NCBI GenBank assembly: GCA_029567505.1
Contig: JAKPXO010000228.1
Location: 3,376 to 67,375, forward strand
From: Acidobacteriota bacterium
Lineage (GTDB): Bacteria; Acidobacteriota; Thermoanaerobaculia; UBA5066
DNA length: 64,000 nt
Direction: 5' to 3'
The translations under genes were made by a program, and so were the position numbers. The notes under the pieces were generated by a model, which did not search any database, was not told the origin of the DNA, and was given only the letters and a program-made list of their open reading frames with translations. This document shows positions 3,584-49,592 of this stretch, one piece after another. How positions within the stretch are numbered: the stretch's first letter is position 1; every line of letters starts with the position of its first letter.

Positions 3584-4864
3584 GTGAGGAATGCGGACGA
3601 GGCCTCGACGGGCCCGAAAGCCGCGTTCTTCCGGGTTAGCATCCCGGCCGTGAAACGCGGCGCCGGCCCGCATTCCTCCGCTCTCCGCGCATCGCTCCGC
3701 CGTTCCGCGCCGCTGCTCGCGCTCCTCGCCTTCGCCCTGGCGGGGGCGCCCGCGGCCCGCTCGGAGGACGCTCCGCGGCCGTTCGTCCTGACCTTCTCCA
3801 ACCCGGGCGCGCGCAGCCTCGCGTTCGGGGGCGCCTTCGCGCCGCTCGCCGACGACGCCACCGCCGCGTACGCGAACCCGGCGGGGCTCGTGCAGCTGCT
3901 CCGGCCCGAGGTCTCCGTCGAGCTGCGCGTCAGCGGCGCTCTCGAGGACGACGACGCGACCGGGGACCCCACGGTGAAGCGGGCCAACGGGCTCTCGTAC
4001 TTCTCGGCGGTCTACCCGCTGCGGCGGTTCTCGCTCGCCCTCTACGGCCACCAGCTCGCGGGCATCGACATCGAGCCCCCCGGCGAGGAGGGCCCGGAGG
4101 CGGTGGCGCGGACGGCCCGGCGGGCGGCAGCGGGGGAGCGGCTCTCCGGCCTCGACGTCTGGCGCCTCGGCGTCTCTGCGGCGTTCCGGCTGCGCGACGA
4201 CCTCAGCGTCGGCCTCGGCGCGTCGTACTTCGACGGGAACGTGGAGCTGGCCCCGAGCGATGACCCGGACGCCGCAGGGCGGAGCGTTTCCAGCAACGAC
4301 TGGACGCTCAACACCGGGGTGCTCTGGCAGCCCGCGGAGCAGCTCCGGCTGGGGGCTTTCTACCGCCAGGGACCGACGCTCTCGCTCGGGAGGCTCGGCG
4401 CGACGCCCTGCGCGGGACGGGAGTGCGTCGAGGCCTCGCTCCGCCTCCCCGACACCTTCGGCGCCGGCGCCGCGCTGCGGTCGGCCGGCGGCGGGCTCAC
4501 GGTGGCCTTCGAGTGGGACCGGGTCCGCTACTCGAGCCTCGTCGCGGGGCTCTCCGCAGCGGCGCTCGGCGCCGACCGGCTCTCCCTCTCGGACGCGAAC
4601 GAGTTCCACGTGGGCGCCGAGTACGCGTTCCTGCGGCTCGACCCGGTGCTGGCCGTGCGCGTCGGCGGGTGGCTCGACCCCGATCACCGCCTTTGCGGCG
4701 CGGCCGCGGACTCGGCGTACCGATGCGAGACCGATGTCCGCTCGGGCGAGGGGCACGTCACGCTGGGCTTCGGAATGGCGTTCAAGCGCTTCCAGCTCGA
4801 CCTGGCGGTCGACGGCTCTCGCGCCGAGGTGACGACGTCGATCTCCGGGATCTTCAGCTTCTAG
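3584..4864 (+). CDS. FadL/OmpP1/TodX-family outer-membrane hydrophobic-compound transporter
   Basis: 426 aa. N-terminal family motif NPGARSLAFGGAFAPLADDATAAYANPAGLVQL. Signal peptide LLALLAFALAGAPAARS. C-terminal Phe. Confidence 0.7.
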   Translation: MRNADEASTGPKAAFFRVSIPAVKRGAGPHSSALRASLRRSAPLLALLAFALAGAPAARSEDAPRPFVLTFSNPGARSLAFGGAFAPLADDATAAYANPAGLVQLLRPEVSVELRVSGALEDDDATGDPTVKRANGLSYFSAVYPLRRFSLALYGHQLAGIDIEPPGEEGPEAVARTARRAAAGERLSGLDVWRLGVSAAFRLRDDLSVGLGASYFDGNVELAPSDDPDAAGRSVSSNDWTLNTGVLWQPAEQLRLGAFYRQGPTLSLGRLGATPCAGRECVEASLRLPDTFGAGAALRSAGGGLTVAFEWDRVRYSSLVAGLSAAALGADRLSLSDANEFHVGAEYAFLRLDPVLAVRVGGWLDPDHRLCGAAADSAYRCETDVRSGEGHVTLGFGMAFKRFQLDLAVDGSRAEVTTSISGIFSF

Positions 4865-5852
4865 GCCGCGCTGCCGCCGCGAGGTGGCGACCGAGGAACC
4901 AGCTGCCGGGCTCCGGGCGCCCGCCGGCGCCGCTCCGTACGAGGCCCAGCGCGCGAAGGCGGGCGATTCGCTCGGCGACACAGGTCGCGTCGCCCGCCGA
5001 AGGGGAGGCGATTCCGGCGAGAAGCTCGCGATCGGCGTCCCCGAGGAGGCCGAGATCGACGTCGCAGAGGCGTGTCACCGTCGGGTCGCGGGCCAGCCCC
5101 TCGCACGCTTCCTGGGCGTTGCCGAGCTCGATCGCGCGCTTGGCGCCGAGCTGGAGGAGGAACGGATGCCCGCCGCAACGAGTCGTCAGGAGATCGACCG
5201 CGGCTTCGGCGAGGTCGGGCCTCCGCCCCGCGGGTAGGTTCTCCTGCCTCAGGAGGCGGCGCGCCTCCTCGTCCTCCAGGGGTCCGATCCACAGCGGTGC
5301 GCCGAAGGCCGCGAGAAGGCGGTGGTCCGGTCCGCTTGTCGAAGTCCCGGCGAGGCGGACGGAGGAAGCCAGGACGACCCTCGTACCGGACTCGTTCCAC
5401 GCGCTTTCGAGCGATCCGAGCCGCTCCGGGTGGCGCCGCAGGAGGGCGAAGAGGTCCTCGGCCTCGTCACAGAGGAGAAGCAGCCGCCGGCCGTGTCGTC
5501 CGAGCTCCCCGGCGAGGCCGGCGAGCGTCGCCGACGCCGGCCCGGGCTTCGGCAGCCCGACGCCCGTCGCGGCGAGAGCGGGTTCGACGTCGATCAGCGC
5601 CTCGTGGAGGCCGAGGTCCAGCTCGTCCGGCTCGTCCGAGCCCTGGAGGTCCCAGACGACTGGCAGGAAGGGCCCCGGCCTGTCGCCGGCGAGCCGTTCG
5701 ACCTCGCGGAGGAGCGAGGTCTTGCCGACGCGGCGCATCCCGACGAGCCAGAGCCGATCCCGTGGCCCGTGGAGCGCCTCCCGGAGCAGGTCGCTCCGGC
5801 CGTAGAAGCGCTCGCCGCGCACCCACGGGCCGACGACGTACGGGACGTTCAT
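4854..5852 (-). CDS. Stand-alone AAA_16/STAND-like ATPase (third gene of the ATPase cluster)
   Basis: Start reassigned to ATG at 5852 (MNVPYVVGPWVRGERFYGRSDLLREALHGPRDRLWLVGMRRVGKTSLL = Walker A; LLLLCDEAEDL = Walker B). Its ATG overlaps the upstream gene's TGA (ATGA). Confidence 0.7.
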   Translation of the reverse strand: MNVPYVVGPWVRGERFYGRSDLLREALHGPRDRLWLVGMRRVGKTSLLREVERLAGDRPGPFLPVVWDLQGSDEPDELDLGLHEALIDVEPALAATGVGLPKPGPASATLAGLAGELGRHGRRLLLLCDEAEDLFALLRRHPERLGSLESAWNESGTRVVLASSVRLAGTSTSGPDHRLLAAFGAPLWIGPLEDEEARRLLRQENLPAGRRPDLAEAAVDLLTTRCGGHPFLLQLGAKRAIELGNAQEACEGLARDPTVTRLCDVDLGLLGDADRELLAGIASPSAGDATCVAERIARLRALGLVRSGAGGRPEPGSWFLGRHLAAAARPRS

Positions 5853-8248
5853 TCGAGGCCCTCGCCGGCGATCGCCTCCACGTCGGCGAGCGTGATCGTC
5901 CCGCGGCCCTCCTGGTGGAGCCGGCCGACGAGCGCGACGCACGCCTTCTGGATCCGGTACGGCCGGCCGGCGGTGACGTCGACCAGACGCTGGAGGGCCG
6001 CGTCGTCGATGTCGAAGACGCCGTCGATGGGGCGGCGCACGAGCGCCTCGGCGGCCCCGCGGTCGAGCGGCGCGACCTCGAGCTCCTCGAAGAAGTTGTA
6101 CCAGGGCGAGCCGGCGAGCTCCCAGTGCTTCAGGATCCCGACCCCGGAGACGACGGCCACGAGGTGCTCGGAGAAGGCGCGCATGAAGAGGCTTCGAAGC
6201 CTCTGGTTCACCTTCGGGTCGTAGGAGTTGAGCTCGTCGACCTCGTCGATGAGAAGGACGAGCTTCACGCGCTTGACCGTGCGGCGTCCCAGGGATTCGA
6301 GCACGGCTCGCAGGTCGCGGGTGAGCTCGTGGTAGCCGTAGCCGGCGACGCGGCCCGCCTCGGGGGCGACGGCGCCGGGCGGGAGGAGCGGGCCGAGCTC
6401 GTCGAGGATCGCGACCATCAGGGCACCGAAGAAGCGCTCCTCCGGGACCCCCTGGAGGTCGACGAGGACGGGGTGGAACGCGAACTCCGGGTCGTCGAGC
6501 TGCTCGAGCCGGCGCTTGAGGTGGTGGAGGAGCGAGGTCTTGCCGATGCGGCGCTCGCCGTAGAGGAGGAGGCTGTTGTTGGGAATCGTCTGCAGGACCC
6601 GGTCGATGAGCGGCTCGCGTCCGAAGAAGAGACGCTCGTCGAGGACTGGCGCGCCGGCGACGTAGGGATTGAACTTCCGTCGCCGCCGGCGTCGCCTCCG
6701 GAGCCTTCGGCCGGTGACGAAGGCACCCGCCGCGGCGAGCGGGATCGCGGCGAGGAGCGCGAGGGCCCACGGCGAGCGCGCGAAGGGCCGCTCGTAGAGG
6801 ACGACGTACTCGGCGCTTGCCGAGAGGCCCTCCGCGTCGGTGGCGACGACGCGGAGCGTCGTGCGGCCCGGGGCGAGCCGCGACGTCGACGAGAACTCCG
6901 TGAGGACGAAGTCGCCGACGTCCTGGCCCGCGGTGCCGGCGGGAGCACCGGCGTCCGTCCCGACGCCGACGTGGACGCGGACGGCCGACCGGTCGAACAC
7001 CACCCCCGAGAGGCGGAACTCCGGGGCGTCGACGATCTCCGCCCGCGTGCCGTCCGGAAGGGTCTCTCGCTGGTCCGAGAAACGGATGGCCGGAGGGAGG
7101 TTCTGACCGGTGCCCCTGCCGAGGAGCGCGCGGCTGATCTCGCCGTAGGCGCGACGGACGGCGGCGCGGGCCGGCTCGCTCGCAGCGTCGAGGGCGAGGG
7201 CACGGTTCGCGGCGGCAAGCGCCCGTTCGTGGCGCCCCGCGGCGTGCTCGGCGTCCGCTTCGGCGAGGGCGCGCGCCACGGCGTCCCGCTTCGCGTTGGA
7301 GCGGCGATCGGAGAGGAGACGCTCGAGGAGCGCCGCCGCGTCGCGGTTGCCGGGGTCGAGCGCCAGCGCCGGCTGGAGGCGATCGAGCGCCTCGGCGTTG
7401 CGCCCGGTACCGGCCAGCTCGCGGGCCGATGCGAGCGCCTCGTCGACCGCGGCGGCACGCGACCCTCGGGCGGCGTCGAGGGCCGAGAGCATTCCCTCCT
7501 CCGCACGGCGCAGGAGCCCCTCCGGGTCGGCGCCCGGCCGGAGCGAGAGGGCCTGTCTCAGGAGGCTCGCCGCCTCCGCGAAACGCCCGGCGGCCAGGGC
7601 GACACGGGCCGAGGAGACGAGACCCGCGGCGTGCTCGCTCTCCTGCCTCTCGCGCTCGCGGCGGTCGGCGTCCTTTCGGAGCCGGGCCGCCCTCGTGACG
7701 GCTCCAGCGTGCTCGGGAGAGACGGCGAGCGCGCGCGAGAGCGCGTCGAGCGCCTCCGCGGGCTTCCCCTGAGCCTCGAGCGCGTCAGCTTCGCTCAGGG
7801 CCCGCGCGACGATCGCCGCCACCCGCTCCGACTCGCCCTCCTCGGCGCCCGCGCGGGCCTCGTCCGTCAGCTGCCGGTACCGCTTGAGGAGCACGCGGGC
7901 CTCGACGGAGCGCGCGACGGCGCCGAGCCGTTCCTCGGTTTCGAACGCCTGCCGTGCGGCGTCGATCTCTCCGAGGTGGAAGTAGGCGATGCCCAGCCTG
8001 AGGTAGGGGAAGTAGTCGACGACCCGCATGCCGTACGTGCGCTCGCGGACGCCGGAATCGCCCTTCGCTTCGATCGCGCCGTTCAGCTCGGCCACGGCCG
8101 TTCGCCAGTCGCTGGCGGCGAGCGCCTTCTCGGCGCGCGCGTAGTGCTCGTACCAGCGGTCCGCGCGGGCGGGCGCGGCGAGGAGAACGAAGGCGAAGGC
8201 GACGAGGGCCGGCGCGAACGGGCGCGGGCGGGGTGCGCGCGCTCTCAC
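5849..8248 (-). CDS. Signal peptide + extracytoplasmic TPR array + single TM helix + poly-Arg tract + cytoplasmic AAA_16/STAND-like ATPase
   Basis: 799 aa. N-terminal signal peptide (AFAFVLLAAPARA). Six or more TPR-like helical repeats and an Ig-like segment. TM helix ALALLAAIPLAAAGAFVTG followed by RRLRRRRRRRRK. Then FFGREPLIDRVLQ...LLLYGERRIGKTSLL (Walker A) and LVLLIDEVDEL (Walker B). GTG start overlaps the upstream TGA (GTGA). Confidence 0.7.
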   Translation of the reverse strand: MRARAPRPRPFAPALVAFAFVLLAAPARADRWYEHYARAEKALAASDWRTAVAELNGAIEAKGDSGVRERTYGMRVVDYFPYLRLGIAYFHLGEIDAARQAFETEERLGAVARSVEARVLLKRYRQLTDEARAGAEEGESERVAAIVARALSEADALEAQGKPAEALDALSRALAVSPEHAGAVTRAARLRKDADRRERERQESEHAAGLVSSARVALAAGRFAEAASLLRQALSLRPGADPEGLLRRAEEGMLSALDAARGSRAAAVDEALASARELAGTGRNAEALDRLQPALALDPGNRDAAALLERLLSDRRSNAKRDAVARALAEADAEHAAGRHERALAAANRALALDAASEPARAAVRRAYGEISRALLGRGTGQNLPPAIRFSDQRETLPDGTRAEIVDAPEFRLSGVVFDRSAVRVHVGVGTDAGAPAGTAGQDVGDFVLTEFSSTSRLAPGRTTLRVVATDAEGLSASAEYVVLYERPFARSPWALALLAAIPLAAAGAFVTGRRLRRRRRRRRKFNPYVAGAPVLDERLFFGREPLIDRVLQTIPNNSLLLYGERRIGKTSLLHHLKRRLEQLDDPEFAFHPVLVDLQGVPEERFFGALMVAILDELGPLLPPGAVAPEAGRVAGYGYHELTRDLRAVLESLGRRTVKRVKLVLLIDEVDELNSYDPKVNQRLRSLFMRAFSEHLVAVVSGVGILKHWELAGSPWYNFFEELEVAPLDRGAAEALVRRPIDGVFDIDDAALQRLVDVTAGRPYRIQKACVALVGRLHQEGRGTITLADVEAIAGEGLE

Positions 8249-9657
8249 GACCGGGTCACCAGCCAGCGGCGGAAGAAGTGGCTCGCGATCGCGACGGAGC
8301 CGTCCGGCGCGCGACGGAGGAGGCCGAGCCGCTCGAGCTCGAGGAGCCGGCCCGTCGGGCCGGATGTCCGCGCCGCGGCCTCGTCCGCCGCGGCCAGACC
8401 GCGCAGGAGGTCACGGTCCTCCTCGTCGAGGAGCGAGAGGTCGACCGAAAAGAGGCGCCCGAGCGCCGGGTCGTCCTCGAGCTCGGCGATGGCCGCCTCC
8501 GTGTCGCCGCGCTCGAGGACGCGCGCCGCGAGCGCCTGCAGCTGGAACGGGTGGTTCCCGCAGGTCTCGCGGATCCTCTCCACCGTCCTCGCGTCGAACG
8601 CCATCCCGGCGCCGGGGCCCGGGCGGGCCGGGCCGAGCAGGTCGCGCGCCTCGGAGTCGGCGAGCGCGCCGAGGTAGACGGGCGGCGTGAAGCCGTGCAG
8701 GAAAGGCGACGTCTCGCCGTCCGGATCGGCGAGCGCCCAGAGCCGGCGCGAGGCCGCCAGAACGGTGCGGATCCCTTCGCGCGACTGGAGCGCGCGGCGG
8801 AGCTTGCGCAGGATCGCGGGCTCGCGCTCCCGCAGCCGGAGGAGCTCCTCGGCCTCGTCGACGAGGAGCAGCAGCTTGAGTCCCTGGGCGCCGAGCAGAC
8901 GGCGCAGGCGTCCGAGCGACGTGAAGAAGTCGCCGGACGGGACCTCGCCGGGCGCGATCCCCGCGGCCGAGAGGCGCGGAGAGGCGTCGAGGAGCGCTTC
9001 CGCGAGGTCCTCCTCGAGCTCGGCGGCATCCTCGACTCCCTCGAGGTCGAGAACGAGCGGCATGAAGCCGCGCTCCGGTGCGGCGGCCGTCAGGTATTCG
9101 GCCTGTCGGAGGAGCGAGGTCTTGCCCACGGCCCGGGTCCCCACGACCCAGAGCGCGTCGCGCGGGCCGTCGAGGATCTCCGCGAGCTGCGCGTCCCGCC
9201 CGAAGAAACGCTCGGCGCGGACCCACCCCCCGGCAACGAAGGGTCTCGACATGGCGGCGACCGCCGGGCGCGCGTTTGTAGCCGGGTTTCGTTCGGGCGG
9301 CACCGGTGGCGACGCCGCCTTCACCGGGGCGAGCAGGCGATAGCCTCGCTTCGAGATCGTCTCGATGTAGCGTGGCTGGCCGGCCACGTCGCCGAGAGCC
9401 CGCCGGAGCTTCGCGATCGCCCGGGTGATCGCCCACTCGGTGATGAACTCGACCTTCCAGACGCCTTCGACGAGCTGGTCGCGGGAGACGACCTGGCCGG
9501 CCCGGTCGGCCAGGAAGACGAGGACGTCCATGAGCCGCGGCTCGAGCTGCACGCTCGCGCCCGGACGCGAGATCCGATTCTGGTCGGGCTGGACGAGCCA
9601 GCCACCCAGCTCGAGGCTGCCGACCCCGACGGCGGGTCCGCGCTCGGAACTGGCCAT
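8245..9657 (-). CDS. OmpR/CadC-type winged-helix DNA-binding domain fused to an AAA_16/STAND-like ATPase
   Basis: Trans_reg_C-like segment LEPRLMDVLVFLADRAGQVVSRDQLVEGVWKVEFITEWAITRAIAKLRRALGD...YIETISKRGYRLLAPV, then FFGRDAQLAEILDGPRDALWVVGTRAVGKTSLL and LLLLVDEAEEL. Start taken as ATG at 9657 (MASSERG...). The ORF-track start at 9747 is possible. Confidence 0.7.
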   Translation of the reverse strand: MASSERGPAVGVGSLELGGWLVQPDQNRISRPGASVQLEPRLMDVLVFLADRAGQVVSRDQLVEGVWKVEFITEWAITRAIAKLRRALGDVAGQPRYIETISKRGYRLLAPVKAASPPVPPERNPATNARPAVAAMSRPFVAGGWVRAERFFGRDAQLAEILDGPRDALWVVGTRAVGKTSLLRQAEYLTAAAPERGFMPLVLDLEGVEDAAELEEDLAEALLDASPRLSAAGIAPGEVPSGDFFTSLGRLRRLLGAQGLKLLLLVDEAEELLRLREREPAILRKLRRALQSREGIRTVLAASRRLWALADPDGETSPFLHGFTPPVYLGALADSEARDLLGPARPGPGAGMAFDARTVERIRETCGNHPFQLQALAARVLERGDTEAAIAELEDDPALGRLFSVDLSLLDEEDRDLLRGLAAADEAAARTSGPTGRLLELERLGLLRRAPDGSVAIASHFFRRWLVTRS

Positions 9658-9931
9658 CGGTGCCGATTCTAGCGGTGCGGGGAGGAGGCCCTCGGAGGCG
9701 AGGCATCGGTCCCGGCCCGCCGCTCGCGCGGGAGCGAGGCGTTCCATGCGGCCACGCTAGGACACCCACGCGGGGAAAGGGTGACCGATCAGGAACCGAA
9801 CGATGACCCCCGATCACGTCCCGGCGACGGCGACGAGGACGCGGGGCGGCCAAAGGAGGCCGGGAGGCGGAAAATGCGGGCGATTCGGGTCTTCCGGCGC
9901 GGGCCGACCGCCGCATCCGGCGCCCCCCCGC

Positions 9932-10073: not shown

Positions 10074-10148
<75 letters not shown>

Positions 10149-10170
10149 TCCCGCTTTCCGCTGCGTTCGC

Positions 10171-10246
10171 AGGCGCTTAGCTCAGCCGGTAGAGCACTTC
10201 CTTCACACGGAAGGGGTCAGCGGTTCGAGTCCGCTAGCGCCTACCA
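10171..10246 (+). tRNA. tRNA-Val (anticodon CAC)
   Basis: Same acceptor stem as the first copy. Anticodon loop TTCACAC, T-arm GGTTCGAGTCC, encoded CCA. Confidence 0.85.
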
Positions 10247-10319
10247 TCCCGCTCCATCCCTCCTCCCCAGAATCCGATCTCGAGCTTCCCGCCACCACGA
10301 GATGGAGGAGGTCGTCGCC

Positions 10320-12278
10320 ATGTCCGCCAACGCCGAAAACGTCGTCCGCCTGACCCTTCCCGACGGTTCCGTCCGGGAGGTGACTACGGGCACGACGGGC
10401 GAGGCGGTGGCGGCCTCCATCGGCGCCCGCCTCGCGAAGGACGCCCTCGCCGTCAAGGTCGCCGGGAAGATCCTCGACCTGAAGCGCCCGATCACCGAGT
10501 CGGGGGCGTTCGAGGTGATCACCCCGAAGCACCCCGACGCGCTCGAGGTCTACCGCCACTCGACCGCCCACCTCACCGCCCACGCCGTCAAGCGCCTCTT
10601 CCCGGGCGTGAAGATCGGGATCGGTCCGGCCATCGAGAACGGCTACTACTACGACTTCGACCCGGGCCGGGCCTTCACCCCGGAAGACCTCGAGAGGATC
10701 GAGGCCGAGATGCGGAAGATCGTGGCGGAGAACGCCCCGGTCGAGCGGCTCGAGATGTCGAAGGCCGAGGCCGTGAAGATCTTCGAGGAGCAGGGCGACC
10801 ACCTGAAGGTGGAGATCGTCTCCGGCATCCCCGAGGGCTCGCTCTCCTGCTACCGCCAGGCCGACTTCATCGACCTCTGCCGCGGACCGCACGTCCCCTC
10901 CACCGGGAAGCTCGGCGTCTTCAAGCTGACGCACGCCGCGGGCGCCTACTGGAAGGGCGAAGAGCGGAACCCGATGCTCCAGCGGATCTACGGGGCCGCG
11001 TTCCTCTCCCAGAAGGAGCTGGACGAGCACCTGCTTCGCATGGAGCAGGCCCGGGCCCGCGACCACCGCAAGCTCGGCAAGGAGCTGGGGCTCTACCTCT
11101 TCCACCCGTGGGCGCCGGCCTCGCCGTTCTTCCTCCCGAAGGGGGCGACGGTCTACACCCTCCTCGTCGACTACATGCGGAGCCTCTACCCGAAGTACGG
11201 GTACACCGAGGTCGTGACCCCGCAGGTCTACGACGTGGAGCTCTTCAAGAAGTCGGGGCACTACCAGAACTACCACGAGAACATGTTCTTCACGGTGGCC
11301 GACGAGCGGGAGTACGGCGTCAAGCCGATGAACTGCCCGGGCCACTTCCTGATGTTCTCGCAGCAGGCCTTCTCCTACCGCGACCTCCCGGTGAGGTACG
11401 CCGACTTCGGGCGGCTCCACCGCTACGAGCGGTCGGGCGTGACCCAGGGGCTGACCCGCGTGCGGACCTTCTGCCAGGACGACGCGCACCTCTTCGTCTC
11501 GCTCGAGGAGATGCCGGCGGAGATGGACCGCTTCATCGACCTGATCGACGAGGTCTACGGCGCGTTCGGCTTCACGGACGTGAAGGTCGCGCTCGCGACC
11601 CGCCCCGAGAAGTACATGGGGTCGCTCGAGAACTGGGACCTCGCCGAGAAGGCGCTCGCCGCGGCGTTCGAGCGGCGCGGCCGGGCGTACGAGATCAACG
11701 CCGGGGACGGCGCGTTCTACGGCCCGAAGCTCGACTTCCAGGTCACCGACGCGATCGGGCGCGCCTGGCAGCTCGGGACGCTCCAGGTCGATTTCTCGAA
11801 CCCCGAGCGGTTCGACCTCGAGTACACGGCCGAGGACGGCACCAAGAGGCGGCCGGTGGTCCTTCACCGCGCGGTCCTCGGGTCTCTCGAGCGGTTCTTC
11901 GGGATCCTCGTCGAGCACACCGGGGGCGACTTCCCGCTCTGGCTCTCGCCGGAGCAGGCGCGCGTCATCCCGGTCTCCGACAAGCTCCTCGATTACGCCC
12001 GCTCCGTCGCGGCCGAGCTCCGCGCCGCGGGCCTGCGCGTGACGGTCGACGAGCGGAACGAGAAGCTCGGGGCGAAGATCCGGCACGGCGAGCTCGAGAA
12101 GGTCCCGGCGCTCCTCGTCGTCGGCGAGAAGGAGCGCGAGGCCGGGGCGGTGTCGCTCCGGAAGCGCCACGAGGGGGACCTCGGGTCGCGGAAGCTCGCC
12201 GAGGTCGTCTCCGAGATGAAGCAGGCCGTCGCCGCGCGTGCGGCGACGTGGGGCGCGAAGACGCCCGCCAAGAAGTAA
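10320..12278 (+). CDS. thrS: Threonine--tRNA ligase
   Basis: TGS domain, second 'additional' domain, class II catalytic core and anticodon-binding domain, all with clear ThrRS motifs. Start placed at ATG 10320 (GGAGGAGG 7 nt upstream). The ORF-track ATG at 10302 lies inside that Shine-Dalgarno. Confidence 0.9.
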   Translation: MSANAENVVRLTLPDGSVREVTTGTTGEAVAASIGARLAKDALAVKVAGKILDLKRPITESGAFEVITPKHPDALEVYRHSTAHLTAHAVKRLFPGVKIGIGPAIENGYYYDFDPGRAFTPEDLERIEAEMRKIVAENAPVERLEMSKAEAVKIFEEQGDHLKVEIVSGIPEGSLSCYRQADFIDLCRGPHVPSTGKLGVFKLTHAAGAYWKGEERNPMLQRIYGAAFLSQKELDEHLLRMEQARARDHRKLGKELGLYLFHPWAPASPFFLPKGATVYTLLVDYMRSLYPKYGYTEVVTPQVYDVELFKKSGHYQNYHENMFFTVADEREYGVKPMNCPGHFLMFSQQAFSYRDLPVRYADFGRLHRYERSGVTQGLTRVRTFCQDDAHLFVSLEEMPAEMDRFIDLIDEVYGAFGFTDVKVALATRPEKYMGSLENWDLAEKALAAAFERRGRAYEINAGDGAFYGPKLDFQVTDAIGRAWQLGTLQVDFSNPERFDLEYTAEDGTKRRPVVLHRAVLGSLERFFGILVEHTGGDFPLWLSPEQARVIPVSDKLLDYARSVAAELRAAGLRVTVDERNEKLGAKIRHGELEKVPALLVVGEKEREAGAVSLRKRHEGDLGSRKLAEVVSEMKQAVAARAATWGAKTPAKK

Positions 12279-14706: not shown

Positions 14707-16773
14707 ATGAAGTTCCGCCTCGAGTGGCTCGGGCAGTACCTGCCCGGCGACCTTCCCGACCTCGCCACGCTCCGCCGCCGCCTCACGGACGTCGGCTTCA
14801 TCGTGGAAGGGACGGAGGGGGAGGGGAAGGACGCGGTCCTCGAGGTCGAGCTGACGGCGAACCGCCCCGACGGTATGAACCACCGCGGGCTGGCCCGCGA
14901 GGCCGCCTGCGCCCTCGGCCGGCCGTTCCGCGACGTCCCCGTGCCGGCGCCGGCGGAGGGAGCGGCCGCGGTGTCCTCCCTCGCGACGGTGACGATCGCG
15001 GCGCCGGAGCTCTGCTCCCGGTACTCGGCGCGCGTCGTGGAGGGGATCCGGGTCCGTGAGGCGTCGGCCAGGGTGCAGGTGCGCCTCCGCGCCCTCGGCA
15101 TGAACCCGATCAGCGCGCCCGTCGACGCGACGAACCACGTCCTCTGGGACCTCGGGCAGCCGCTCCACGCCTTCGACCTCGAAACGCTCGCGAAGGGCCC
15201 GGACGGGCTCCCCGCGATCGTCGTCCGGCTCGCACGCGCCGGGGAGACGCTCGTCACCCTCGACGGCGTCGAGCGGACGCTCACTCCGGAGGATCTCGTC
15301 ATCGCCGACGCCGAGCGGCCCGTCGCCCTCGCCGGCGTCATGGGGGGCCTCGAGACGGCGATCACGCCGTCCACGACGCGCGTCCTCCTCGAGTCGGCCC
15401 ACTTCAACGCGACGGCGGTGAGGAAGACGGCCCGCCGCCACGGGATGCACACGGACGCCTCGCACCGCTTCGAGCGGGGGACCGACCCGGAGACGACGGT
15501 CGAGGCGCTCGACCGCGTCACGGAGCTCCTCCTCGCCGACTGCGGCGGAACGGTCGCGCGCGGGGTGATCGACGCCCTCGGGACGCCGCGCCCGCGGCAG
15601 ACGGTGACCCTGCGCCACGCGCGCCTCGTCTCGTTCCTCGGGATGGAGGTGCCGCTCCCGCGCTGCGCCGAGATCCTCTCCTCCCTCGCGTTCGGCGTGA
15701 GGGAAGCGGCCCCCGGAGTCCTCGAGGTCTCCGTGCCGACCTGGCGGGTCGACGTCGAGCAGGAGTGCGACCTGATCGAGGAGGTCATCCGGGTCGTCGG
15801 CTATTCCTCGCTCCCCGAGACGCTGCCGCACGCCTACAACCCCACCTGGTCCGAGCCGACCCTCGCCCGCGAGGAGCGCGCCCGGGACCTCTTCGCCGCG
15901 GCGGGCTTCGCCGAGGCGTGCACCTACTCGTTCGTCTCGGCCGAGGAGAACTCTCCTTTCGCGTCCTGCGTCGACGGGACGCCCCCGGTCGTCTCGAACG
16001 CGCTCGGGGAGCCGTTCACGACGATGCGTTCGACGCCGGTGGTCGGGCTCCTCCGGGCGGCCCGGCACAACGTCCGGCGCGGGCTCGGCGACCTCGCCCT
16101 CTTCGAGGTCGGCCGCTCCTATGCGCTCGTCGAGGGCCGCCCGGTCGAGTCCCGCCGCGCGGCGATCCTCCTGCGAGGCCGCCGCGGCGTGCACTGGGCG
16201 GCCGAGGCGCGCCCCGCCGACTTCTACGACGGCTCGGGCGCCGTGGCCGCCCTCTTCGCCGGGTTCGGCGCGCCCGCCCCGGCGTTTCGGCCGGCCGCGC
16301 TCCCCTTCCTCGCGCCGGGTCGCTCGGCCGAGGTCGTCGCGGACGGGAAGGTCGCCGGGTGGGTCGGTGTCCTCGCCGGGCCGCTGGGCGCCACGTGGGA
16401 CCTCGGAGAGGCGGTCGTCGCCGACGTCGAGCTCGCCGCGATTCCGGTGCCGTCCCCCCCATCGTCGGTGGAGATGCCGTCGAGGTTCCCCGGCAGCGGT
16501 GTCGACCTGACGGTGACGCATCCGATCGCGCTTTCGTGGGACACGCTCGTCGCGGCCGTCCGGACCGGCGCCCCGGCCGAGCTCCTCTCGGTCGAGGCGA
16601 AGTACCTCTGGCGCGGTGCCGGCGTGCCCGAGGGGCACGTCAAGACGACCCTCACCGTGGCCTTCGGGTCCGCGGAGCGCTCCCTCGAGCGCGACGAGAT
16701 CAACCGCTGGCGCGACGAGGCCGCCCGGCGCCTCCTCGCCGTCCCCGGGGCGGCGGTGGACGGAATCTCCTGA
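14707..16773 (+). CDS. pheT: Phenylalanine--tRNA ligase beta subunit (short form lacking the N-terminal OB/EMAP tRNA-binding domain)
   Basis: 688 aa. B3/B4, B5, catalytic-like and FDX-ACB domains are recognisable. The ~110-aa OB-fold segment after the first ~35 residues is absent. Confidence 0.85.
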   Translation: MKFRLEWLGQYLPGDLPDLATLRRRLTDVGFIVEGTEGEGKDAVLEVELTANRPDGMNHRGLAREAACALGRPFRDVPVPAPAEGAAAVSSLATVTIAAPELCSRYSARVVEGIRVREASARVQVRLRALGMNPISAPVDATNHVLWDLGQPLHAFDLETLAKGPDGLPAIVVRLARAGETLVTLDGVERTLTPEDLVIADAERPVALAGVMGGLETAITPSTTRVLLESAHFNATAVRKTARRHGMHTDASHRFERGTDPETTVEALDRVTELLLADCGGTVARGVIDALGTPRPRQTVTLRHARLVSFLGMEVPLPRCAEILSSLAFGVREAAPGVLEVSVPTWRVDVEQECDLIEEVIRVVGYSSLPETLPHAYNPTWSEPTLAREERARDLFAAAGFAEACTYSFVSAEENSPFASCVDGTPPVVSNALGEPFTTMRSTPVVGLLRAARHNVRRGLGDLALFEVGRSYALVEGRPVESRRAAILLRGRRGVHWAAEARPADFYDGSGAVAALFAGFGAPAPAFRPAALPFLAPGRSAEVVADGKVAGWVGVLAGPLGATWDLGEAVVADVELAAIPVPSPPSSVEMPSRFPGSGVDLTVTHPIALSWDTLVAAVRTGAPAELLSVEAKYLWRGAGVPEGHVKTTLTVAFGSAERSLERDEINRWRDEAARRLLAVPGAAVDGIS

Positions 16774-46381: not shown

Positions 46382-47962
46382 GTGACGCGCTGGCCCGTTC
46401 GTCTCGTCGCCGCGGTCCTTCTGGCGGCGCTGCTGCCGCCGGCCGTCCTCGTCTGGCTCTCCTTCCGCCTCGAGCGGCGGGCCCTGCGCGACGACCTCGA
46501 GCGCCGCGCCCGGTCGGCCGCCGCGCTCACCGACGCCCTCCTCTCGAGCACGGAGGGCCTCCTTTCACGGCTCGGAACGGACTGGGACGGAGGCTGCGGG
46601 GCCGAGACCGCGGAATCGCTCCGTTCCGCGCTCGAGGTCGGAGCCGGCGTCCGAGGCGTCGCGCTGCTCGACGCGGAGCTCCGCCCCGTCTGCGTGGCCG
46701 GGACGGCGCCGGTGCCCCCGTCGCCGTCCGTCCGGGGAGCGCTCGGCCGCGACGCGCGTGCCGTCTGGGAGGCCGGGGCGCCGGGCGGCCTCATCCGCCT
46801 CGCGCTGCGGCTCCCGGAGGGTTCGGCCGAGGCGGCCCTCGACGCCGGGCCGATCGCGCGCGCTCTCACGGAGCTCGCGGGGGGCGGCCGGGACGCCGTC
46901 GAAGTCCGGGGCGTCGCCGGTCCCGTCCTCTCCATCCCCGCGGCTCCCGCCTCACGGCGCCTCGCTTCGCCGTTCCTCCTCCTCCTCGGTTCGCTCGTCG
47001 GCGCGCGGGACGAGACCGCTGTCGCCCCCTGCGCCGGCGGGGGCGTCTCCGTCCACCTGTACGCCCGCCGGGAGGCGCAGCTCGCCGCGTGGGGAGAGAC
47101 CCTCCCGCTTCTCGTCGCGATCGGCCTCGGCTTCGGCGCCGGCGCCGCCGCGCTCGTCCTCCTCGCGGGATCGCCCGGCGCGGCGCTCACGCGCCAGCTG
47201 CGCGGAGCGCTCCGGCGCGGCGAGCTGGAGGTGAGGTACCTGCCGATCGTGGACGTGTCGTCCGGTCGCTGTGTCGGCGCCGAGGCCCTCCTCCGGTGGC
47301 GTCACGCGCGGGAGGGGCTCCTTTCGCCCGACCTCTTCATCGCGCTCGCCGAGGAGACGGAGCTGATCGTCCCGATCACGGAGTGGCTCATGCGACGGGT
47401 CGCGCGGGACCTTCCCGGCGGTCTCCGCGAGCCCGACCGCTTCTACGTGGCGATCAACCTCGCCGGGGCGCACCTGCGCGATCCCGGGACCGTGGCGGCC
47501 GTCCTGCGCGCGTTCGCGGGCTCGCGGCTCGGGCCGAAGGGCCTCGTCTTCGAGGTGACGGAGCGGGAGGTGATCGACGACGTGGACGGGACGGCCCGAA
47601 ACGTCCTCGAGGCGCTCCAGGGGTGGGGCGCCACGATCGCTCTCGACGACTTCGGCACCGGCTACTCGAACATCGCCACGCTGCGGCGCTTCCGTCTCGA
47701 CCACCTGAAGATCGACAAGAGCTTCGTCGAGGGGATCGGCACCGGCTCGGTCGCCGAGACGGTCGTCGACACTCTCGTCGAGCTGGGACGGAAGCTCGAG
47801 ATGACGGTCGTGGCGGAGGGTGTCGAGCGGGAGGAGCAGGTGGAGTACCTCGTCGAACGAGGCGTCCGCCACTTCCAGGGGTACCTCTTCTCGAAGCCCC
47901 TCCCCCTGAAGGAGCTCGTCGCGTTCGTGAACGAACGGGCGGGCGGCCCGGTCGTCAGCTGA
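46382..47962 (+). CDS. Membrane-anchored c-di-GMP phosphodiesterase: periplasmic Cys-containing sensor domain plus EAL domain
   Basis: N-terminal TM, periplasmic segment with conserved cysteines (DGGCGAE...PVCVAG), second TM, EAL domain (GAEALLRW, DDFGTGYS, KIDKSF). Confidence 0.75.
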   Translation: MTRWPVRLVAAVLLAALLPPAVLVWLSFRLERRALRDDLERRARSAAALTDALLSSTEGLLSRLGTDWDGGCGAETAESLRSALEVGAGVRGVALLDAELRPVCVAGTAPVPPSPSVRGALGRDARAVWEAGAPGGLIRLALRLPEGSAEAALDAGPIARALTELAGGGRDAVEVRGVAGPVLSIPAAPASRRLASPFLLLLGSLVGARDETAVAPCAGGGVSVHLYARREAQLAAWGETLPLLVAIGLGFGAGAAALVLLAGSPGAALTRQLRGALRRGELEVRYLPIVDVSSGRCVGAEALLRWRHAREGLLSPDLFIALAEETELIVPITEWLMRRVARDLPGGLREPDRFYVAINLAGAHLRDPGTVAAVLRAFAGSRLGPKGLVFEVTEREVIDDVDGTARNVLEALQGWGATIALDDFGTGYSNIATLRRFRLDHLKIDKSFVEGIGTGSVAETVVDTLVELGRKLEMTVVAEGVEREEQVEYLVERGVRHFQGYLFSKPLPLKELVAFVNERAGGPVVS

Positions 47963-49592
47963 TCCCGACGATCTTCCCGTCGACGAGGTCGATCCGCTCC
48001 GCCTGAGGAACGGAGGGGAGCCCCGGCATCCGCAGGATGTCGCCGAGGAGCGGCACGAGATAGCCGGCGCCCGCCGCGAGGAGGACGCCCCGGACGGTGA
48101 CGTCGAACCCTTCGGGACGGCCGACGACCCCGGGGTCGTCCGAGAGCGACATCTGGGTCTTCGCGACGCAGAGCGGCAGATTCTCGTACCCGAGGCGGGC
48201 GATCTCCGCGAGGTCGCGCTCCGCCTCCCGGCTCCACTCGACGGACGACGCGCCGTACATGTGACGGGCGATCTTCGCCAGCTTCTCCTTCGGCGGGTCC
48301 TCGCGCGCGTAGAGCGGCCGGAACGGGCTCGACTTCCGCTCCGCGTGGGCGAGGACCGCCTCGGCGAGCGCGACCGCTCCCTCGCCTCCCCTCTCGAACG
48401 CGTCGCAGACGGCGAACGGCGCGCCCCAGCCCTCCGCGGCGCGGCGGACGACGGCGACCTCCTCCCCGGAGTCGGTCGCGAACCGGTTGAGCGCGACCAC
48501 CGGCACCTCCCCGAACGCGCGGATGCTCTCGAGGTGCTTCGCGAGGTTCGGCAGGCCCCGCTCGACGGCGGCCGGATCGGGCGTCGTGAGCCCCTCCTTC
48601 GAAACGCCGCCGTGCCGCTTCAGGGCCCGAACGGTCGCCACGAGGACGACGGCGGCCGTGTCGAGGCCCGCCCCGGCGCACTTGATGTCGAAGAACTTCT
48701 CCGCGCCGAGGTCGAAGCCGAAGCCGGCCTCGGTGACGACCCAGTCGGCGAGCGAGAGCGCCGTCTTCGTCGCGATCACCGAGCTGCAGCCGTGGGCGAT
48801 GTTCGCGAACGGGCCGCCGTGGACGAACGCCGGCACCCCCTCGCCCGTCCGGACGAGGTTCGGAAGGAGCGCGTCGCGCAGGAGCGCGAGCATCGACCCC
48901 GCCCCTCGCAGGTCCCCCGCCGTGACCGGCTCCTTCCCGAACGTCAGCGCGACGACGATGCGCGAGAGGCGCGCGCGCAGGTCCTCCGCGTCCTCGGCGA
49001 GGCAGAGCGCGGCCATGACCTCGGAGGCCGGAGTGATGTCGAAGCCGGTCTCGCGCGGCACCCCCTGGAGGACGCCTCCGAGGCCGATGACGACGTGGCG
49101 GAGCGCCCGGTCGTTCACGTCCAGGACGCGGCGCCAGAAGACCCGCCTCGGGTCGATCTCGAGCCGGTTCCCGTGGTGGACGTGGTTGTCGAGGAGCGCC
49201 GCGAGGAGGTTGTGAGCCGAGGTGACGGCGTGGAAGTCGCCCGTGAAGTGGAGGTTGATGTCGTCCGAGGGGACGAGGCGTGCCCGGCCTCCGCCCGTCG
49301 CGCCCCCCTTCATCCCGAACGTCGGCCCGAGCGAGGGCTCGCGGAGCGCGACGCTGGCGCGCGCGCCGATCCGGGCGAGGCCCTGGGCGAGGCCGATGGA
49401 GGTCGTCGTCTTCCCCTCGCCGGCGCCGGTCGGCGTGATCGCCGAGACGAGGACGAGCCGGCCGCGCTGCGTGAACCCGGCCGGCGACGGGAGCACCTTC
49501 GCCTTGTCGTGGCCGTACGGGACGAGGCGTTCCGGCGGAAGGCCGAGCGCGGCGGCCGCTTCGGCCAGGGACGGGATCGCGGGCTCGGGCAT
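47955..49592 (-). CDS. fhs: Formate--tetrahydrofolate ligase
   Basis: 545 aa. TPTGAGEGKTTT P-loop and full-length FTHFS similarity. Overlaps the convergent EAL gene end by 8 nt. Confidence 0.9.
   Translation of the reverse strand: MPEPAIPSLAEAAAALGLPPERLVPYGHDKAKVLPSPAGFTQRGRLVLVSAITPTGAGEGKTTTSIGLAQGLARIGARASVALREPSLGPTFGMKGGATGGGRARLVPSDDINLHFTGDFHAVTSAHNLLAALLDNHVHHGNRLEIDPRRVFWRRVLDVNDRALRHVVIGLGGVLQGVPRETGFDITPASEVMAALCLAEDAEDLRARLSRIVVALTFGKEPVTAGDLRGAGSMLALLRDALLPNLVRTGEGVPAFVHGGPFANIAHGCSSVIATKTALSLADWVVTEAGFGFDLGAEKFFDIKCAGAGLDTAAVVLVATVRALKRHGGVSKEGLTTPDPAAVERGLPNLAKHLESIRAFGEVPVVALNRFATDSGEEVAVVRRAAEGWGAPFAVCDAFERGGEGAVALAEAVLAHAERKSSPFRPLYAREDPPKEKLAKIARHMYGASSVEWSREAERDLAEIARLGYENLPLCVAKTQMSLSDDPGVVGRPEGFDVTVRGVLLAAGAGYLVPLLGDILRMPGLPSVPQAERIDLVDGKIVGIS

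Follow-up and report, generated by a model that had tools for sequence, protein, structure and literature searches.

A candidate transmembrane receptor NTPase translationally coupled to soluble NTPase paralogues in Acidobacteriota

We analysed a stretch of 64,000 nucleotides from an Acidobacteriota bacterium of the Thermoanaerobaculia (assembly GCA_029567505.1, contig JAKPXO010000228.1, positions 3,376 to 67,375 of the forward strand), which is called the window hereafter. The subject of this study is gene 2 of the window, whose 799-aa product carries a tetratricopeptide repeat (TPR)-like region toward its N-terminus and a nucleoside triphosphatase (NTPase) at its C-terminus, together with the operon of paralogous NTPase genes in which it lies. 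The first-pass annotation, made by a model from the letters of the window, had read this protein as a self-contained switch with TPR sensing outside the inner membrane and nucleotide switching inside. We propose here that it is probably a transmembrane receptor that signals by co-assembly with paralogues that bear the outputs. All results are computational, and the topology calls were made by sequence heuristics, namely hydropathy, charge and motif conservation. The genes of the locus are listed below.

3584..4864, plus strand: FadL/Toluene_X-type outer-membrane protein, convergent with the operon (Toluene_X 32.4 bits, cut-off 29.7)
4854..5852, minus strand: gene 3, soluble bare NTPase of 332 aa, with a nucleotide-binding domain (NBD), a helical domain (HD) and a winged-helix domain (WHD)
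5849..8248, minus strand: gene 2, predicted receptor NTPase of 799 aa (open reading frame (ORF), Pfam, homologues, AlphaFold2 model)
8245..9747, minus strand: gene 1, CadC-like winged-helix DNA-binding domain plus paralogous NTPase, 500 aa (Pfam, NCBIfam)

All three paralogous NTPase genes are read from the minus strand, one behind the other, and gene 2 shares 4 nt with each of its neighbours. The stop codon of gene 1 overlaps the start codon of gene 2 by 4 nt, and the ATG of gene 3 overlaps the stop codon of gene 2 by 4 nt in the sequence ATGA. Gene 2 is translationally coupled to genes 1 and 3. The NTPases of genes 1 and 3 are 41% identical over 331 residues, and each is 28-31% identical to the NTPase of gene 2 (28% for gene 1). 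Gene 1 matches Pfam Trans_reg_C at 65 bits and nSTAND1 at 36.0 bits (cut-off 27.1), and its N-terminus matches the NCBIfam CadC N-terminal region with E=6.7e-30. The AlphaFold2 model of gene 3 (predicted local distance difference test (pLDDT) 90.9) consists of an NBD, a helical domain and a C-terminal winged helix. The partner NTPases begin with the motif PY[VI].G, which in the receptor stands directly after its juxtamembrane linker.

Gene 2 starts with a GTG codon and is an intact reading frame of 799 codons. The order of parts in its product is signal peptide, TPR-like region, beta-sandwich, transmembrane (TM) helix, basic linker and NTPase, located as follows.

8162..8248, minus strand: predicted signal peptide, aa 1-29, with predicted cleavage between PARA and DRWYEHY (hydropathy and homologues)
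7121..8161, minus strand: helical TPR-like ectodomain, aa 30-376 (Pfam TPR_1/2/14/19, AlphaFold2, Foldseek)
7949..8068, minus strand: most conserved ectodomain block, aa 61-100, KGDSGxRxRxYGMxVVxYFPYLxLGIAY (column conservation)
6794..7090, minus strand: membrane-proximal, Ig-like beta-sandwich, aa 387-485 (AlphaFold2, eight strands)
6710..6772, minus strand: TM helix, aa 493-513, hydrophobic core 495-513 (Kyte-Doolittle 2.0)
6674..6709, minus strand: basic juxtamembrane linker RRLRRRRRRRRK, aa 514-525 (sequence and homologue contexts)
5852..6673, minus strand: predicted cytoplasmic NTPase, aa 526-799, NBD plus helical domain with GxP, no winged helix
6533..6559, minus strand: Walker A, G564-ERRIGKT-S572
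6233..6259, minus strand: Walker B, V664-LLIDEVDE672

More than 120 full-length homologues of gene 2 were found, with identities of 47-99%. The mean column identity of the family is 56% in the 66-sequence alignment that was used for residue counts, and the AlphaFold2 model, built from the family alignment, has a mean pLDDT of 83.9. Residues 1-29 comprise a basic, Arg-rich n-region, a 15-residue hydrophobic core and the sequence PARA followed by Asp. In the alignment of 66 homologues, Ala occupies position -1 in 63 and Asp position +1 in 62, and position -3 is Ala, Val or Leu; W32 and Y33, just past the cleavage site, are invariant. The cleavable-looking signal peptide noticed in the first-pass annotation is a conserved property of the family in its hydrophobic segment and its AxA-D motif. 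The single anchoring helix claimed there was borne out as well, the peak at 495-513 being the sole internal hydrophobic one. This TM helix is also present in the homologues, where it is preceded by RSPW, and in the model one continuous helix (residues 493-523) spans both the TM segment and the Arg tract. The net charge within 15 residues of the helix is +0.7 on the N-terminal side and +8.3 on the C-terminal side.

By these heuristics gene 2 has all the features of a Sec-exported type I membrane protein, that is, an n-region, a core, an AxA motif, one later TM helix and a positive-inside charge distribution. The TPRs are predicted to be outside because the signal-peptidase motif is conserved, the internal TM helix is single and there is a charge step across it; the NTPase side is placed inside, since an ATP-dependent domain must be cytoplasmic. 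The topology also gains independent support because, in relatives described below, a Reg_prop/Y_Y_Y sensor occupies the same position as the TPR-like ectodomain, and Bacteroides hybrid two-component systems are known to use Reg_prop plus Y_Y_Y as their sensor in the periplasm (PMC3243724). Every sequence-based indicator of topology agrees with the orientation first proposed, TPR outside and NTPase inside, and we strongly infer an N-out/C-in arrangement of the protein.

The linker RRLRRRRRRRRK is the most striking part of the chain, in which 11 of 12 residues are basic and the longest uninterrupted basic run is nine (eight Arg and one Lys). The description of the tract as extremely basic is therefore correct, while "ten or more consecutive" basic residues was a slight overstatement. 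The expected number of runs of at least eight Arg in a protein of this composition is 2e-5. The segment from the TM helix to FNPY[VI]AG has a fixed length of 12 residues across 163 distinct homologue contexts, and a search of homologues for the tract, as had been advised, found a basic linker of the same length in all 163. Among the 14 residues before FNPY, 6-11 are basic (mostly 8-9), and in 132 of the 163 contexts none is acidic. The consensus is R-x-R-R-R-R-[RQ]-L-[RLM]-[RK]-R-[RK]; the clade of the window is the extreme of the family, with Arg at the few positions that are otherwise non-basic. The linker is predicted to be a strong positive-inside determinant, and to that extent its reading as a stop-transfer signal stands. 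It is not a one-off stop-transfer, however, since it is a fixed-length linker found family-wide. Because its length is fixed and its helix is continuous with the TM helix in the model, the linker may also have a role in structural coupling, to which these two features point.

The Arg codons of the linker are mixed (CGA, AGG, CGG and CGC), and the tract has the identical length in five independent assemblies of related genomes, which differ by substitutions only. For these two reasons the tract is not a product of sequencing error or slippage, one of the two conditions under which the first-pass annotation would have withdrawn its claim. Rare Arg codons make up 5 of the 10 in the tract (three CGA and two AGG), against a background of 18% in seven window genes (P=0.024). 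Translational pausing at these codons was considered and was not adopted; they are not conserved in close relatives and are probably not functional.

The ectodomain had been described as TPR/Ig-like, and both halves of that description agree with profile matches and structure prediction. Four Pfam TPR profiles scored above their cut-offs (TPR_2 41.9, TPR_1 41.4, TPR_14 32.5 and TPR_19 29.5 bits). The model, which supplies the ectodomain structure prediction that had been called for, is all-helical over residues 31-376, and residues 387-485 form a beta-sandwich of eight strands. The helical region includes three long helices (115-159, 181-219 and 302-336) that act as connectors. Foldseek matched the ectodomain to the TPR domains of OGT, CTPR and P58IPK. 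With Pfam scores above threshold, a helical repeat fold and a profile that matches consensus TPR structures, the region is that of a TPR repeat protein. A sequence search of the Protein Data Bank (PDB) with the family profile returned generic TPR matches only, and no NTPase relative at E<0.01.

Within the ectodomain, conservation is highest in the block at residues 61-100, where the frequency of the commonest residue averages 0.84 per column, level with the NTPase motifs. Ten positions of the block are invariant (D64, G66, R68, R70, Y72, G73, M74, Y79, P81 and Y82), and residues 64-74 have pLDDT values below 50 in the model. Its TYG..Y.PY motif is also present in a sister class of about 700 aa. 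The block is a candidate site for a ligand or a partner and is likely to be a binding loop. The beta-sandwich gave a weak match to Pfam Big_13 (E=0.069). That it is a homologue of Y_Y_Y is unproven, the hhalign probability being 19.6% over 20 columns.

The Walker A/B NTPase that had been placed after the basic tract is equally well conserved. In the Walker A motif G564, R566, R567, I568, G569, K570 and T571 are invariant among the 66 sequences, and in the Walker B motif L665, L666, D668, E669, V670, D671 and E672 are. AAA_16 (32.9 bits) and AAA_22 (32.2 bits) scored above their Pfam cut-offs. We compared the domain with the signal transduction ATPases with numerous domains (STANDs), whose defining features are those reportedly set out by Leipe et al. 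2004, supplemented with the Pfam nSTAND families. Gene 2 has the canonical Walker A (GxxxxGK[ST]) and Walker B (hhhhD[DE]) motifs, as well as the GxP motif of the helical domain in the form TAGRPY, where P763 is invariant. In the paralogues the motif takes the forms GGHPF and GNHPF. The model places the helical domain at residues 749-798, after which the protein ends. In gene 2 there is no winged helix to complete the nucleotide-binding oligomerisation domain (NOD; NBD-HD-WHD), and its C-terminus is about 60 residues shorter than those of genes 1 and 3 in the alignment. Nor does gene 2 have effector, NOD and sensor on a single cytoplasmic chain: its repeats are N-terminal and predicted to be extracytoplasmic, and it has no effector. 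The receptor carries a truncated NBD-HD, and the soluble partners carry the complete NOD. Gene 2 falls short of STAND membership on two of these features, the winged helix and the single-chain effector-NOD-sensor order. When eight receptor homologues were scanned, five passed nSTAND1 (27.4-41.3 bits against 27.1) and one passed nSTAND6. The combination of closest fold, C-terminal DNA-binding winged helix and association with an origin that marks an Orc1/Cdc6 initiator was not found. The NTPase of gene 2 sits on the border of PF01637, Orc1-Cdc6 and STAND (nSTAND1), a placement with which the Foldseek result agrees.

Since gene 2 has no winged helix and no output domain, and the outputs are carried by soluble paralogues, the earlier view of the protein as a self-contained sensor and switch needs refinement. 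Relatives of the receptor are present in 212 species-level genomes, nearly all of them metagenome-assembled genomes (MAGs) of Acidobacteriota (Thermoanaerobaculia, Holophagae, Vicinamibacteria and Polarisedimenticolia), with some Woeseiaceae (Gammaproteobacteria) and one Binatia. Neighbours within 8 kb were counted by mapping the window proteins onto six-frame ORFs, in 48 non-redundant loci that had 5 kb or more of sequence on either flank. A paralogous NTPase gene was found in 47 of the 48 loci, and in 45 it was fused to an output domain: a winged helix-turn-helix (wHTH) in 23 loci and a Ser/Thr kinase in 23, one locus having both. A FadL-like outer-membrane protein gene lay within 8 kb in 43 of the 48. 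In all 53 cases where a partner gene follows the receptor gene, no more than 14 nt separate its start from the receptor stop, and 34 of these have the 4-nt overlap. A search with gene 3 revealed four forms of the partner family, namely bare, with an N-terminal Trans_reg_C, with a C-terminal Pkinase (confirmed at 174 bits), and with a C-terminal extracytoplasmic function (ECF) sigma domain. The last form is represented by P0300, encoded directly after the receptor in locus L027. No second membrane-anchored NTPase paralogue was found among the 113 partner ORFs.

Four loci contain a long stop-to-stop ORF of 940-1422 aa after the receptor gene (L026, 8267-11092; L036, 10636-14901; L041, 5660-8686; L056, 7941-10760). 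These ORFs match the partner NTPase, the Ser/Thr kinase and the ECF-sigma C-terminal region, which suggests that they may encode NTPase-kinase-sigma triple fusions, as read from stop-to-stop frames. In one Vicinamibacteria genome, a MAG, a gene for an FHA-GAF-HisKA-HATPase_c histidine kinase overlaps the start of the receptor gene (L003, 4343-6004; also L004 and L016), an overlap that links the module to a two-component sensor as well. Directly upstream of a receptor homologue in a Thermoanaerobaculia MAG (L002, 1-5757; same contig as L034) is a ubiquitin-like conjugation cluster with YukD, ThiF E1, JAB, FHA, Prok-RING_1 and UQ_con E2.

Outside Acidobacteriota, receptor homologues of 45-51% identity were found in Gammaproteobacteria (L014, L017-L019, L023, L024, L037, L040, L043, L062 and L081, five of which are Woeseiaceae), in the Binatia genome (L030) and in a Hyphomicrobium bin (L069). 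In 9 of the 11 gammaproteobacterial loci the genes have a distinct order: the outer-membrane protein, a wHTH-NTPase on the opposite strand, and the receptor. The receptors found outside Acidobacteriota imply either horizontal transfer between phyla or binning errors.

The part of gene 2 from the membrane inward has a wider distribution than the full-length protein. Residues 486-799 (TM helix, linker and NTPase), searched against 1.84 billion cluster representatives, gave 6740 matches at E<=1e-3, 1865 at <=1e-10 and 376 at <=1e-30. In the best 149 matches the NTPase is C-terminal, and the mean net charge of the 14 residues before it ranges from +4.3 to +7.2 by class. A hydrophobic helix precedes the NTPase in 110 of the 131 best matches that have at least 80 upstream residues. 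One class, of about 700 aa, has a shorter TPR ectodomain in which the N-terminal WYE.Y and the TYG..Y.PY motif are kept, WYE.Y coming after a short hydrophobic leader. Its gene is flanked by that of a Toluene_X outer-membrane protein and that of a 467-aa AAA_22 partner. Another class, of 1050-1480 aa, has an ectodomain of Reg_prop beta-propellers and a Y_Y_Y domain. It was represented by five loci, of which one near-identical pair and one more locus had enough downstream contig; in these the very next gene after the receptor encodes a soluble AAA_22/ATPase_2 partner of 434-441 aa, and aminotransferase or glycosyltransferase genes come after that. The invariant core, as judged from this sample, is a membrane receptor NTPase plus a soluble paralogous NTPase.

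The surroundings of the operon in the window are those of a chromosomal housekeeping region. Two tRNA-Val genes (gac and cac) lie directly upstream of thrS, with pheT and formate-tetrahydrofolate ligase further on (10074-10246, 10302-12278 and 14707-16773 on the plus strand; 47955-49592 on the minus strand). The receptor operon is divergent from this cluster and so does not lie in a mobile or defence island. A promoter and terminator scan of the locus gave results at chance level. Two other genes of the window are unrelated to the operon: one for an EAL-domain protein (46382-47962, plus strand) and one for a large secreted thermolysin-like M4 peptidase with PPC and CarboxypepD_reg domains (57595-60516, plus strand).

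We propose that gene 2 encodes a transmembrane receptor NTPase that signals by co-assembly with output-bearing paralogues, a reading to which we assign a probability of about 0.6. The protein would be a type I single-pass receptor of the inner membrane, with a TPR-like superhelix of about 350 residues and an Ig-like domain in the periplasm. Its TM helix would continue as a rigid, basic 12-residue helix straight into a cytoplasmic NTPase of the PF01637/STAND (nSTAND1-like) kind, and the poly-Arg tract would both set the N-out/C-in orientation and keep the NTPase against the anionic face of the membrane. At the ectodomain, a ligand or a partner from the periplasm or the outer membrane would bind, an event probably tied to the co-conserved FadL-like channel and most likely involving the invariant, poorly modelled loop at residues 62-82 in the first TPR unit. 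By way of the TM and basic helices, this event would change the nucleotide or oligomeric state of the tethered NTPase. The tethered NTPase would then co-assemble with the translationally coupled soluble paralogues, which have a complete NBD-HD-WHD, and the co-assembly would activate or localise their wHTH, sigma or kinase domains. In the window the output would be transcriptional, through the CadC-like wHTH, with a bare partner in addition; in other genomes it would be a Ser/Thr kinase or an ECF sigma factor. Such a scheme would resemble a ToxR/CadC-like membrane regulator split into two chains and rejoined by NTP-dependent association of NTPases.

In STANDs, the winged helix locks the resting state. 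Assembly between receptor and partners is an attractive possibility because the receptor has no winged helix and the partners share the PY[VI].G motif. The FadL-like channel, which is not universal in the wider class, suggests hydrophobic compounds or the state of the outer membrane as the signal. Domain order and architecture, conservation, gene coupling, paralogy, fusion partners and folds are what we observed; our confidence in a signalling role for gene 2 is moderate, and it is weaker for hetero-oligomerisation and for the role of the outer-membrane protein.

Several of our results weigh against this proposal. The gene 2 NTPase itself scored 17.9 bits with nSTAND6 against a cut-off of 27.7 and stayed below the nSTAND1 threshold, only the generic AAA_16 and AAA_22 profiles passing. 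Among solved folds, PF01637 ATPases and Orc1/Cdc6 come closer to it than classical STANDs do, and for this reason STAND-style activation of gene 2 is drawn by analogy. The Binatia locus L030, one of the 48, has no detectable partner. In the Reg_prop-class loci with enough contig the FadL-like gene is absent, and consequently the FadL-like protein is not part of the invariant core. Hetero-oligomerisation, finally, is suggested by paralogy, gene coupling and fusion patterns.

We considered other explanations of the same architecture. Periplasmic TPR proteins often scaffold outer-membrane proteins, and gene 2 could accordingly be an assembly or tethering factor, in which the ATPase multimerises a periplasmic TPR scaffold that inserts, anchors or gates the FadL-like protein, with no signal involved. 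The receptor NTPase matches Pfam AAA_22, and the FadL-like gene lies within 8 kb of the receptor gene in most loci and abuts it in the class of about 700 aa. The precedent is ExeA (ExeA/GspA), an AAA ATPase that crosses the inner membrane once and has a large periplasmic domain; both the formation of its complex and the assembly of an outer-membrane protein require its ATPase (PMC4098917). The architecture is analogous. Yet the companions of gene 2 are NTPases fused to wHTH, ECF sigma and Ser/Thr kinase domains, for which outer-membrane assembly offers no obvious use, and the Reg_prop relatives keep the partner NTPase where there is no FadL-like gene. The domain order is moreover the reverse of that of ExeA, Pfam detected no peptidoglycan-binding domain in the receptor, and type II secretion genes were not seen in the neighbourhoods; gene 2 does not have the characters of ExeA/GspA. 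We regard an assembly factor as unlikely.

Still less probable in our judgement is a role in defence, with a STAND-type receptor watching the periplasm for molecules of phages or competitors. Abstracts describe many bacterial STAND NTPases as antiviral sensors, and the periplasmic TPR-CHAT domain of the anti-sigma factor DdvA has been proposed to sense phage infection (PMC11506125). The best PADLOC hit of gene 2, however, was Avs1b with E=0.0014 and 14 bits, and genes 1 and 3 and the outer-membrane protein gave none; the match to an Avs, bNACHT or other PADLOC model together with an effector that identifies known anti-phage STANDs was not found. None of about 85 loci encodes a toxic effector (nuclease, TIR, protease or pore), the outputs being transcription and kinase domains only. 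The family also appears to be conserved vertically across Acidobacteriota, with the mean column identity given above and stable synteny next to housekeeping genes, in contrast to defence genes, which evolve fast and sit on islands. The TPR sensors of classical STANDs are cytoplasmic, and one could imagine gene 2 to be an ordinary soluble or peripheral TPR-NTPase whose hydrophobic segments do not span the membrane or whose N-terminus is not exported. This is very improbable given the conservation in the family of both hydrophobic segments and the AxA-D motif, the charge step of +8 across the internal helix and the fixed linker length. The class of about 700 aa also has a hydrophobic leader before WYE.Y, and relatives have periplasmic Reg_prop/Y_Y_Y sensors at the same position (PMC3243724). 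That the poly-Arg tract arose by assembly or sequencing error in a CGG-rich repeat can practically be dismissed. The region is CGN-rich, but Tandem Repeats Finder detected there only a weak repeat of 12 bp x2 (score 41), the codons are mixed, the reading frame is intact on both sides, and both the five assemblies and the 163 contexts have a tract of that length.

Beyond gene 2, it is possible, if somewhat doubtful, that such receptor NTPases constitute a widespread and undescribed mode of transmembrane signalling, built from a variable extracytoplasmic sensor (TPR/Ig, Reg_prop propellers with Y_Y_Y, or others), a TM helix, a rigid basic linker and a truncated STAND-type NTPase. A stimulated receptor would then nucleate NTP-dependent co-assembly of the complete NODs of soluble paralogues, which bear a wHTH, an ECF sigma factor or a Ser/Thr kinase. 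We found no description of this architecture in the literature on membrane STAND receptors, on Reg_prop/Y_Y_Y combined with AAA or STAND domains, or on NTPase-extended ECF sigma factors. If true, it would be a membrane-templated, NLR-like assembly, a separate route beside two-component systems, anti-sigma/ECF pairs, Ser/Thr kinases and chemoreceptors. STAND and AAA+ switches are understood as cytoplasmic sensors in transcription control and NLR immunity, and the paradigm would be extended to transmembrane signalling. A function would be given to proteins annotated as "AAA family ATPase", "TPR repeat protein" or "hypothetical"; the family spans at least 212 species genomes, and the module in its wider sense 376 cluster representatives at E<=1e-30. 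Likely interaction partners and readouts can be read from the fusions, namely the wHTH regulon, the sigma regulon and the kinase substrates, and the fixed-length poly-basic helix may serve as a compact model of how a juxtamembrane segment links a globular switch to a TM helix. Most carriers are uncultured members of the Acidobacteriota from soil and sediment, whose signalling repertoire is poorly known.

Several known systems resemble the gene 2 protein in part. With the STAND NTPases (MalT, AfsR-type regulators, NB-ARC/NACHT NLRs and Avs, with nSTAND1 and the PF01637 "archaeal ATPase" structures PDB 2qen and 2fna) it has a P-loop and a GxP helical domain in common. The winged helix is found in its partners, and the nSTAND1 threshold is passed by gene 1 and by most of the receptor homologues tested. 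As in many STAND regulators, TPR repeats and wHTH or kinase outputs accompany the module. A classical STAND is one cytoplasmic chain in the order effector-NOD-sensor, an order reportedly set out by Leipe and colleagues. In the receptor, by contrast, the repeat "sensor" is N-terminal and exported, and a TM helix separates it from the NTPase. The receptor NTPase has no winged helix or effector, and sensor and output are on separate chains that share only the NTPase module.

The likeness to ToxR and CadC lies in the wHTH of gene 1, which is closest to the CadC N-terminal region, and in the combination of a periplasmic sensor, a single TM helix and a wHTH at the membrane. Here, however, wHTH and TM sensor reside on two different proteins, both of which include a paralogous NTPase, and an NTP-dependent step is proposed between sensing and DNA binding; CadC and ToxR are not known to have an NTPase. 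In the Bacteroides hybrid two-component systems, Reg_prop and Y_Y_Y form a periplasmic glycan sensor just before the TM helix (PMC3243724), and relatives of the receptor carry the same domains ahead of the TM-linker-NTPase module. The transmitter in our case is a P-loop NTPase rather than HisKA/HATPase_c with a receiver and AraC, and the ectodomain of the window protein is TPR/Ig rather than propellers.

ExeA/GspA likewise combines a single pass through the inner membrane, a cytoplasmic AAA-type ATPase, a large periplasmic domain and a link to an outer-membrane protein (PMC4098917). The receptor differs in having the opposite domain order and membrane orientation and a TPR/Ig periplasmic domain, that of ExeA being peptidoglycan-binding; paralogous soluble NTPase partners and transcription or kinase outputs are not found with ExeA. 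The trans-envelope systems of anti-sigma and ECF sigma factors also bring together genes for an outer-membrane protein, for an inner-membrane protein that has one pass and a large periplasmic domain, and for a transcription factor, and some partners here carry an ECF sigma domain. DdvA in particular is a single-pass signalling protein whose periplasmic TPR domain is proposed to do the sensing (PMC11506125). The outer-membrane protein at our locus, in contrast, is FadL-like and not a TonB-dependent transducer, and the coupling is proposed to run through paralogous NTPase modules instead of sequestration and regulated proteolysis. Pfam and NCBIfam scans gave no anti-sigma domain in the receptor, and the ECF sigma domains, where present, are fused to the partner NTPase. 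The gene 2 protein belongs neither with ExeA nor with the anti-sigma factors or the known defence STANDs; by analogy, it would work most like a STAND switch grafted onto a split membrane regulator of the ToxR/CadC style.

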